The notes beneath the pieces are model-generated. The model saw only the letters and a program-made list of their open reading frames with translations. It had not been told where the DNA came from and searched no databases. A program made the position numbers and the translations under genes. From Escherichia coli (lineage in GTDB: Bacteria > Pseudomonadota > Gammaproteobacteria > Enterobacterales > Enterobacteriaceae), in assembly GCF_041248615.1 (NCBI RefSeq), contig NZ_CP158426.1: DNA of 64,000 nt; one strand, 5' to 3'. Positions 40,186-40,269 of the stretch are shown one piece after another. Positions within the stretch are counted from its first letter, which is position 1. Every line of letters starts with the position of its first letter.

Positions 40186-40269
40186 TGAATTTGCTCCTAT
40201 ATGTCCAGACATCTGTTATCACTTACCCTGTTACGGCCCTTCAACAGCAGAAGATTCAGGGGTAGTCTA
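40186..40269 (-). mobile_element. Miniature IS2-like element: both terminal IRs with almost no interior
   Basis: TGAATTTGCTCCTATATGTCCAGACATCTGTTATCACTTACCC (IRR-like) and ...GAAGATTCAGGGGTAGTCTA (rc of IRL-like TAGACT...CCCCTGAATCT) are ~20 bp apart; no flanking direct repeat. Confidence 0.45.

Follow-up and report, generated by a model that had tools for sequence, protein, structure and literature searches.

Insertion sequence (IS) copies provide portable homology through which pathogenicity islands undergo deletions and rearrangements, and homology on the kilobase scale is usually invoked in such cases. Mosaic pathogenicity islands often contain IS fragments in a decayed state.

IS2 is a 1331-bp element of the IS2 group within the IS3 family. 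Residues 20–42 of its left end (IRL) are the transposase anchor (PMC3299598, Lewis et al.), and single-base-pair deletions at IRL position 14, 26, or 29 abolish minicircle formation (PMC3299598). In the minicircle junction the outer tips of the two ends abut, with a 1-bp spacer (PMC3299598). Bacterial MITEs, such as those reported to be mobilised in Pseudomonas syringae (PMC3189936), are the other system to which a small element of this kind can be compared. No specific description of a natural IS2-derived MITE in E. coli was found in the literature searched.

The unit described here is 84 bp in length and lies within a 64,000-nucleotide stretch of E. coli DNA, referred to below as the window. 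It is very probably a non-autonomous relic of an IS2-type element (IS3 family, IS2 group) that is most likely immobile. As a decayed IS it is ordinary, though unannotated.

Genomic Setting and Reference Sequences

The setting of the window is a chromosomal mosaic island of E. coli. The RefSeq annotation of the region includes iha, decayed integrative-element genes, many IS remnants, a cytochrome b562 gene, a 57-amino-acid yebF-family fragment, and a tyrosine integrase adjoining ynjA. The RefSeq records contain no annotation over positions 40186–40269. The 1.1-kb stretch around the unit is 100% identical in 27 complete genomes, mostly poultry-derived, and has no plasmid match.

The IS2 reference is an authentic 1331-bp copy from a K-12-derived genome with the 5-bp duplication CAAGG. 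Two further IS2 variants (approximately 95–96%) from other strains were also used for comparison.

Structure of the 84-bp Unit

The unit and its parts are as follows.

40186–40269, minus strand: complete relic of an IS2-type element with an internal deletion, 84 bp, running from the IRL tip at 40269 to the IRR tip at 40186
40186–40226, minus strand: right end (IRR), 41 nucleotides, identical to the IS2 IRR at 37 of 41 positions
40227–40251, minus strand: subterminal right-end sequence, homologous to IS2 nucleotides ~1266–1290, the degenerate 3’ end of orfB
40250–40257, minus strand: deletion junction GAAGATTC, at the imperfect direct repeat GAAT(C/A)TC of IS2
40252–40269, minus strand: outer ~20 nucleotides of the IRL, comprising the cleavage domain and part of element B, with a 2-nucleotide deletion in the G/C tract

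The plus strand of 40186–40269 reads TGAATTTGCTCCTATATGTCCAGACATCTGTTATCACTTACCCTGTTACGGCCCTTCAACAGCAGAAGATTCAGGGGTAGTCTA. A preliminary description made from the sequence had recorded a miniature IS2-like element between these two positions, and both the coordinates and the description proved exact when the sequence was read and aligned with IS2. The two ends are oriented as the ends of one element with no transposase between them, as had been proposed, and the flanking 5-mers (ATCGG and AGCGC) do not form a 5-bp direct repeat.

The IRR has four substitutions in the window. Those at nucleotides 3 and 10 fall within the 11-bp cleavage domain as defined in PMC3299598, and the others are at nucleotides 18 and 41. 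A blastn search of the window with IS2 recovered the IRR arm at 88% over 49 nucleotides (E = 1e-11), and a 22-nucleotide core of the IRR occurs once in the window, against 0.00 occurrences expected from shuffles. Homology to the IS2 right end reaches approximately nucleotide 66 of the unit, which is also where full-length IS2-family matches from E. coli genomes and plasmids end. The transposase genes orfA and orfB with their programmed frameshift are absent from the 84 bp; approximately 20 degenerate codons of the orfB 3’ end are left. The full 41-bp IRR has a cleavage domain on the outside and a transposase-binding domain on the inside; the window copy matches it at 37 of 41 positions and the copy in strain L26 at 40 of 41. 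This end, the donor end, is largely intact, and its binding domain is intact.

The left arm on the minus strand, TAGACT--ACCCCTGAATCT, aligns with nucleotides 1–20 of the IS2 IRL with a 2-nucleotide gap and one substitution. Both cleavage domains of the window copy carry changes. Taken alone, this arm is not significant in a search of the 64 kb (local score 13, with shuffles giving a mean of 11.5 and a maximum of 15). Its identity as an IRL is settled by the paralogous copies, which at the same position carry a perfect IS2 IRL over 22 nucleotides (AR0085 type) or 19 nucleotides (GF43/SMS-3-5 type). Only nucleotides 1 to ~20 of the IRL are present (1–22 in copy C), and residues ~21–42 are missing. 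Nothing resembling the anchoring region, CCAGACAACCAATATCACTTA, follows the left tip in the alignment of the relic, so that a 42-bp IRL that includes the anchoring residues 20–42 (PMC3299598) is lacking. With respect to MITE structure, both ends of the unit derive from IS2 ends, the left one is shortened, and mutual complementarity of the two arms is not detectable (approximately 10 of 22). Because the arms are not detectably complementary to each other, they can be recognised as ends through IS2 homology only.

The Deletion Junction

IS2 contains an imperfect direct repeat, GAATCTC at nucleotides 15–21 (inside the IRL) and GAATATC at nucleotides 1261–1267 (near the end of orfB), with coordinates counted on the reference sequence. 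The switch from right-end homology to IRL homology in the relic falls exactly within GA(A/G)GATTC. A deletion between the two repeats is predicted to leave a product of approximately 85 bp, and the observed copies are 84–87 bp in length. The internal sequence lost amounts to approximately 1,245 bp (~1.25 kb) and includes orfA, orfB, the IRL-proximal promoter, and IRL residues ~21–42. A single internal deletion of a 1331-bp IS2-type element fits the junction, how far the homology reaches, and the amount of sequence lost, and the term "internally deleted IS2 relative", offered at the outset, is retained here. The subterminal part reaches only approximately 80% identity with the full-length IS2 variants found; the parent is therefore taken to be a relative of IS2 and not IS2 itself.

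The junction, ..CCTTCAANNGCAGNNGATTCAGGGG.., has an architecture common to all the copies, so the deletion happened once. An IS2-type element would once have been situated downstream of a yebF-like gene, where a single internal deletion between the GAAT(C/A)TC repeats would have fused IRL nucleotides 1 to ~20 to the last ~66 nucleotides. The anatomy of the junction is observed directly; from it we infer slippage or a short-homology deletion as the simplest mechanism. Aberrant excision and repair dependent on the transposase or on an IS-excision enhancer, in place of slippage, is decidedly unlikely. IS3-family elements do undergo excision-linked deletions, and a junction with only short imperfect microhomology would also fit end-joining repair. 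However, both tips are kept and the break is internal, whereas the transposase cleaves at the tips and would not be expected to yield an internal deletion that keeps them, and an imperfect 7-nucleotide direct repeat is present exactly at both IS2 breakpoints, as slippage or a short-homology deletion predicts.

Copies, Flanks, and Mobility

At least 80% of the unit is held by 61 of the 5,426 complete E. coli genomes. The copies can be sorted into three paralogous loci, and one genome, ECCNB12-2, has all three. The loci and the flank they have in common are as follows.

Locus A (window type), 27 genomes: cytochrome b562, relic, yebF fragment
Locus B (SMS-3-5 type), 51 genomes at 100%, including carriers of A: sitD, relic, 22 nucleotides, IS1 remnant
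Locus C (AR0085 type), at least 20 genomes: AbgT, relic, yebF pseudogene-ROK-glpQ
40270–40600, minus strand: conserved right flank, yebF-like 3’ region and fragment (ORF at 40413–40586)

Window-type carriers (LH10-b-1 and ECCNB12-2) have one or two additional paralogous copies of the relic. The extra copy adjoining sitD is inverted and lies 33–57 kb off in the same island, and the extra copy adjoining the AbgT/yebF/ROK/glpQ cluster lies approximately 2.6 Mb off. Within the window there are no further copies, and both arms are unique.

The yebF-like right flank accompanies every relic copy examined. Between the window and L26 it is identical at 2500 of 2500 positions, and between the window and GF43 or AR0085 it is 95% identical over 400 nucleotides, as is the case for loci A and C (approximately 400 nucleotides at 95%). 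The right flank in common with locus B is 22 nucleotides, where the IS1 remnant ends it. On the left side, loci B and C have 31 nucleotides in common at 25 of 31 positions. The 200 nucleotides on the left side of the relic in the window are confined to the same 27 genomes, and the homology of this flank to the left flank of B and C is not significant. Because all copies examined have right-flank homology, they are segmental paralogues and not new insertions. The relic would have spread passively, carried with the yebF-like flank into three paralogous island loci.

No 5-bp target duplication is present in any of the five flank configurations. In addition to the window, the flanking 5-mers are GTGAC/AGCGC in L26 and TTCCT/ACCGC in GF43 and AR0085. 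Full IS2 copies examined do carry duplications (CAAGG, CCCAG, and GTGAC).

The cytochrome b562 gene to the left of the relic (39526–39915, plus strand) has an approximately 77% paralogue on many ColV-type virulence plasmids and some chromosomes. This paralogue homology stops approximately 200 nucleotides short of the relic. Compared with the B/C-type flank, the window has 12 additional nucleotides to the right of the relic, at approximately 40341–40352 (within ...ACAGAGAACGTGCAGCGTTTTTTT...), just before a T-run downstream of the yebF-like gene. A pre-insertion empty site was sought at the intact yebF locus of PK-F-10122 but not recovered, as homology starts 81 nucleotides right of the relic position; only the coding region of this intact yebF homologue is in common with the window.

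In the plasmid search, at least 80% of the unit was found in 0 of 72,556 plasmids, and the matches were full-length IS2-family right ends only. A gapped IRR...IRL pattern applied to one genome per species (100,044 species) gave two matches and no MITE family. These two, from Pseudoalteromonas and a Bacteroidota MAG, look like chance matches; they have no similarity to IS2 ends beyond the pattern and belong to unrelated taxa. A junction-specific pattern run over 241 million metagenome records gave six contigs, all in the A, B, or C context.

The preliminary description had allowed for a MITE-like derivative that could be mobilised in trans, to be recognised by further copies with target duplications. 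Copies do exist in the 61 genomes, with the same right flank in every one examined and no duplication, and the proposal of mobility is not supported by the comparison of contexts and ends. That an IS2-family transposase mobilises the unit in trans and spread it by transposition is highly improbable. In favour of this reading, the unit is small and non-coding, has recognisable IS2 ends in the correct relative orientation with a nearly intact donor end (IRR), reaches up to three copies per genome, and shares its genomes with full-length IS2-family elements, including the one 11.9 kb off in TUM9803. Against transposition, right-flank homology of 22 nucleotides to more than 2.5 kb is found in every copy examined, and the 31 nucleotides of left flank common to two of the types complete the signature of segmental duplication or acquisition. 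The 5-bp target duplication is in no copy, and the unit was not found on the 72,556 plasmids, in the genomes of other species, or in any new context among the metagenome records. IRL residues ~21–42, needed for circle formation, are missing, and the relic has not moved in TUM9803 despite the full IS2 variant 11.9 kb away.

The immobile relic is the preferred reading. It is predicted not to be mobilisable in trans because IRL residues ~21–42 are missing and, in the window copy, both cleavage domains are altered, given the published requirements of the IS2 ends, and this prediction agrees with the distribution data. With no transposase of its own and no left anchor, an IS2 transposase supplied in trans should fail to pair the relic ends.

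An 11.9-kb Deletion Through the Relic

A second position in the window is needed to follow the relic through a series of strains.

24391–24395, no strand assigned: empty target site GTGAC, occupied by an IS2 variant in TUM9803

The context of the empty site in the window is ..CCTGTGAC|TTATACCC... In TUM9803 the site contains a full 1331-bp IS2 variant flanked by the GTGAC duplication. This variant is 95.4% identical to K-12 IS2 and is in the same orientation as the relic, and its start lies 11,880 bp upstream of a relic identical to that of the window. In L26 and 23CRST011, ..CCTGTGAC runs straight into a hybrid relic and the interval is gone. Nucleotides 1–40 of the L26 hybrid are identical to those of the IS2 variant in TUM9803, also at the diagnostic positions 3, 10, 18, and 27, while nucleotides 41–84 and the 2,500 nucleotides of right flank are those of the window. 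As read from these sequences, which represent all three states, the order of events is the window type, then insertion of IS2, and then deletion of the interval.

In a TUM9803-like ancestor, recombination between the IRR of the IS2 variant and the IRR of the relic would have deleted the interval and left the hybrid relic. The L26 crossover maps within nucleotides 28–40, and the longest perfect match is 13 nucleotides. Since the exchange took place within the repeat, away from its tip, the event is taken to be homology-driven and not a transposase cut. A 13-nucleotide perfect match is short for RecA-dependent recombination, and 11.9 kb is long for slippage.

In GF43, a single genome, the relic connects sitD directly with the yebF-ROK-glpQ module. 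The left flank and nucleotides 1–65 of the relic match locus B, and the tail of the relic and the right flank match locus C. GF43 is likely a B × C recombinant, with the crossover in the last ~20 nucleotides of the relic or the first ~22 nucleotides of the flank. No reciprocal of the GF43 junction was detected among the E. coli genome copies.

The relic differs between strains even where the flank does not. The window and L26 have four relic substitutions despite a right flank identical at 2,500 of 2,500 positions (Fisher p = 1e-6), and GF43 and AR0085 have seven despite an identical flank of the same length, 2,500 of 2,500 (Fisher p = 4e-11). Flank replacement would explain the missing duplication and the left flanks that differ exactly at the IRR tip. 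It would also explain a relic that diverges faster than its flank (81–86% vs. 95%).

In principle, a left flank that changes precisely at the tip of the IRR may point to the transposase acting at this end, rather than to recombination. The IS2 transposase may bind the relic IRR, and synapsis with a nearby IS2 IRR could promote short-homology deletions such as the 11.9-kb deletion of L26, though this is unlikely. If it were true, small IS relics would be recurrent, transposase-assisted breakpoints remodelling the islands of ExPEC and APEC, and the left-flank change exactly at the IRR tip would be accounted for. Under the preferred reading, that of homology-driven recombination, the only activity of the relic that can be demonstrated, and this at the level of sequence, is that of 40–66 nucleotides of portable homology.

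Other IS Elements in the Window

One further IS2-group sequence lies beside the empty GTGAC site.

23979–24331, plus strand: orfB remnant, IS2-group, frameshifted and truncated (tblastn, 67–69% amino acid identity to IS2 OrfB residues 177–294)

An IS2-group transposase remnant had been noted earlier at 23980–24390 in connection with the unit. The remnant is real, but it belongs to another IS2-group element, one distinct from IS2, and is not the relic's parent. As either the parent of the relic or a source of transposase it was rejected, being truncated and frameshifted, with a right end of its own that reads differently. This degenerate right end appears to finish near 24377. The remnant (23979–24395) is also present in dozens of E. 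coli genomes, including SMS-3-5.

A second relic of an IS2 end is found at 27002–27021 (plus strand). It is a solo 20-nucleotide fragment identical to the outermost IS2 IRR (IS2 nucleotides 1312–1331, GAAATATAGGGGCAAATCCA), and further IS2 homology is absent on the inner side. The outer tip of the fragment points rightward, to the outer IRR tip of the 84-bp relic 13 kb away.

An apparently intact IS21-family element, ISEc12, is located at 36774–39076 (plus strand; istA of 513 amino acids and istB of 249 amino acids) between an IS5 remnant and the cytochrome b562 gene. It is present in ECCNB12-2 and not in LH10-b-1 or TUM9803, and is therefore a recent insertion polymorphism.

Possible Host Function

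It is extremely improbable that the host has co-opted the unit, for example to serve the yebF-like gene upstream of it as a terminator or regulatory site, or to bind the IS2 transposase or OrfA as a decoy. The same position has been kept in three diverged paralogous loci and the IRR binding domain is intact, both of which speak for a retained role. The element has nevertheless diverged faster than the 400 nucleotides of flank beside it, the window copy has indels and substitutions inside the cleavage domains, and the adjoining yebF-like genes are themselves pseudogenes or fragments. No promoter-like or terminator-like sites were found inside the unit, and the unit has no Rfam match.

Significance

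The relic itself matters little and is an ordinary finding. It does provide a worked example of how a MITE can be told from a passively duplicated IS relic, by flanks in common, the lack of a target duplication, and a shortened binding domain. The three natural states of the strain series indicate that an 84-bp relic can partner an incoming IS in a recombination that removes island DNA, in this case DNA carrying phoX, ABC-transporter remnants, and cytochrome b562. This is of use when structural variants of the iha/sit/iutA island in avian and extra-intestinal E. coli are annotated and interpreted.

Comparison with Known Systems

The relic resembles IS2 in its IRR, at 37 of 41 positions with approximately 25 nucleotides more into the 3’ end of orfB, and in its left tip, which corresponds to IRL nucleotides 1–20 (1–22 in copy C) in the same relative orientation of the ends. 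Unlike IS2, it is without the ~1,245-bp interior and without the 5-bp target duplication.

The relic is similar to bacterial MITEs in that it is small and non-coding and has lost the interior of an IS while keeping some sequence of each end. In contrast to these elements, its copies have flanks in common and no target duplications, they do not form a family at multiple sites, and one end is below the published functional minimum.

In having an IRR and an IRL tip close together, the relic is also like the IS2 minicircle junction, in which IRR and IRL abut and form the Pjunc promoter. An integrated minicircle junction is ruled out by orientation. The tips of the relic face outward and the inner sides are joined, and it is therefore a deletion derivative and not an integrated circle junction.

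The series formed by the window, TUM9803, and L26 is like IS-mediated portable homology in that it is a deletion between directly repeated IS2-type right ends. It differs in that one partner is an 84-bp relic, with approximately 40 nucleotides in common at 90% identity and a crossover in a 13-nucleotide perfect match. The deletion series is thus the known principle at a very short length of homology.
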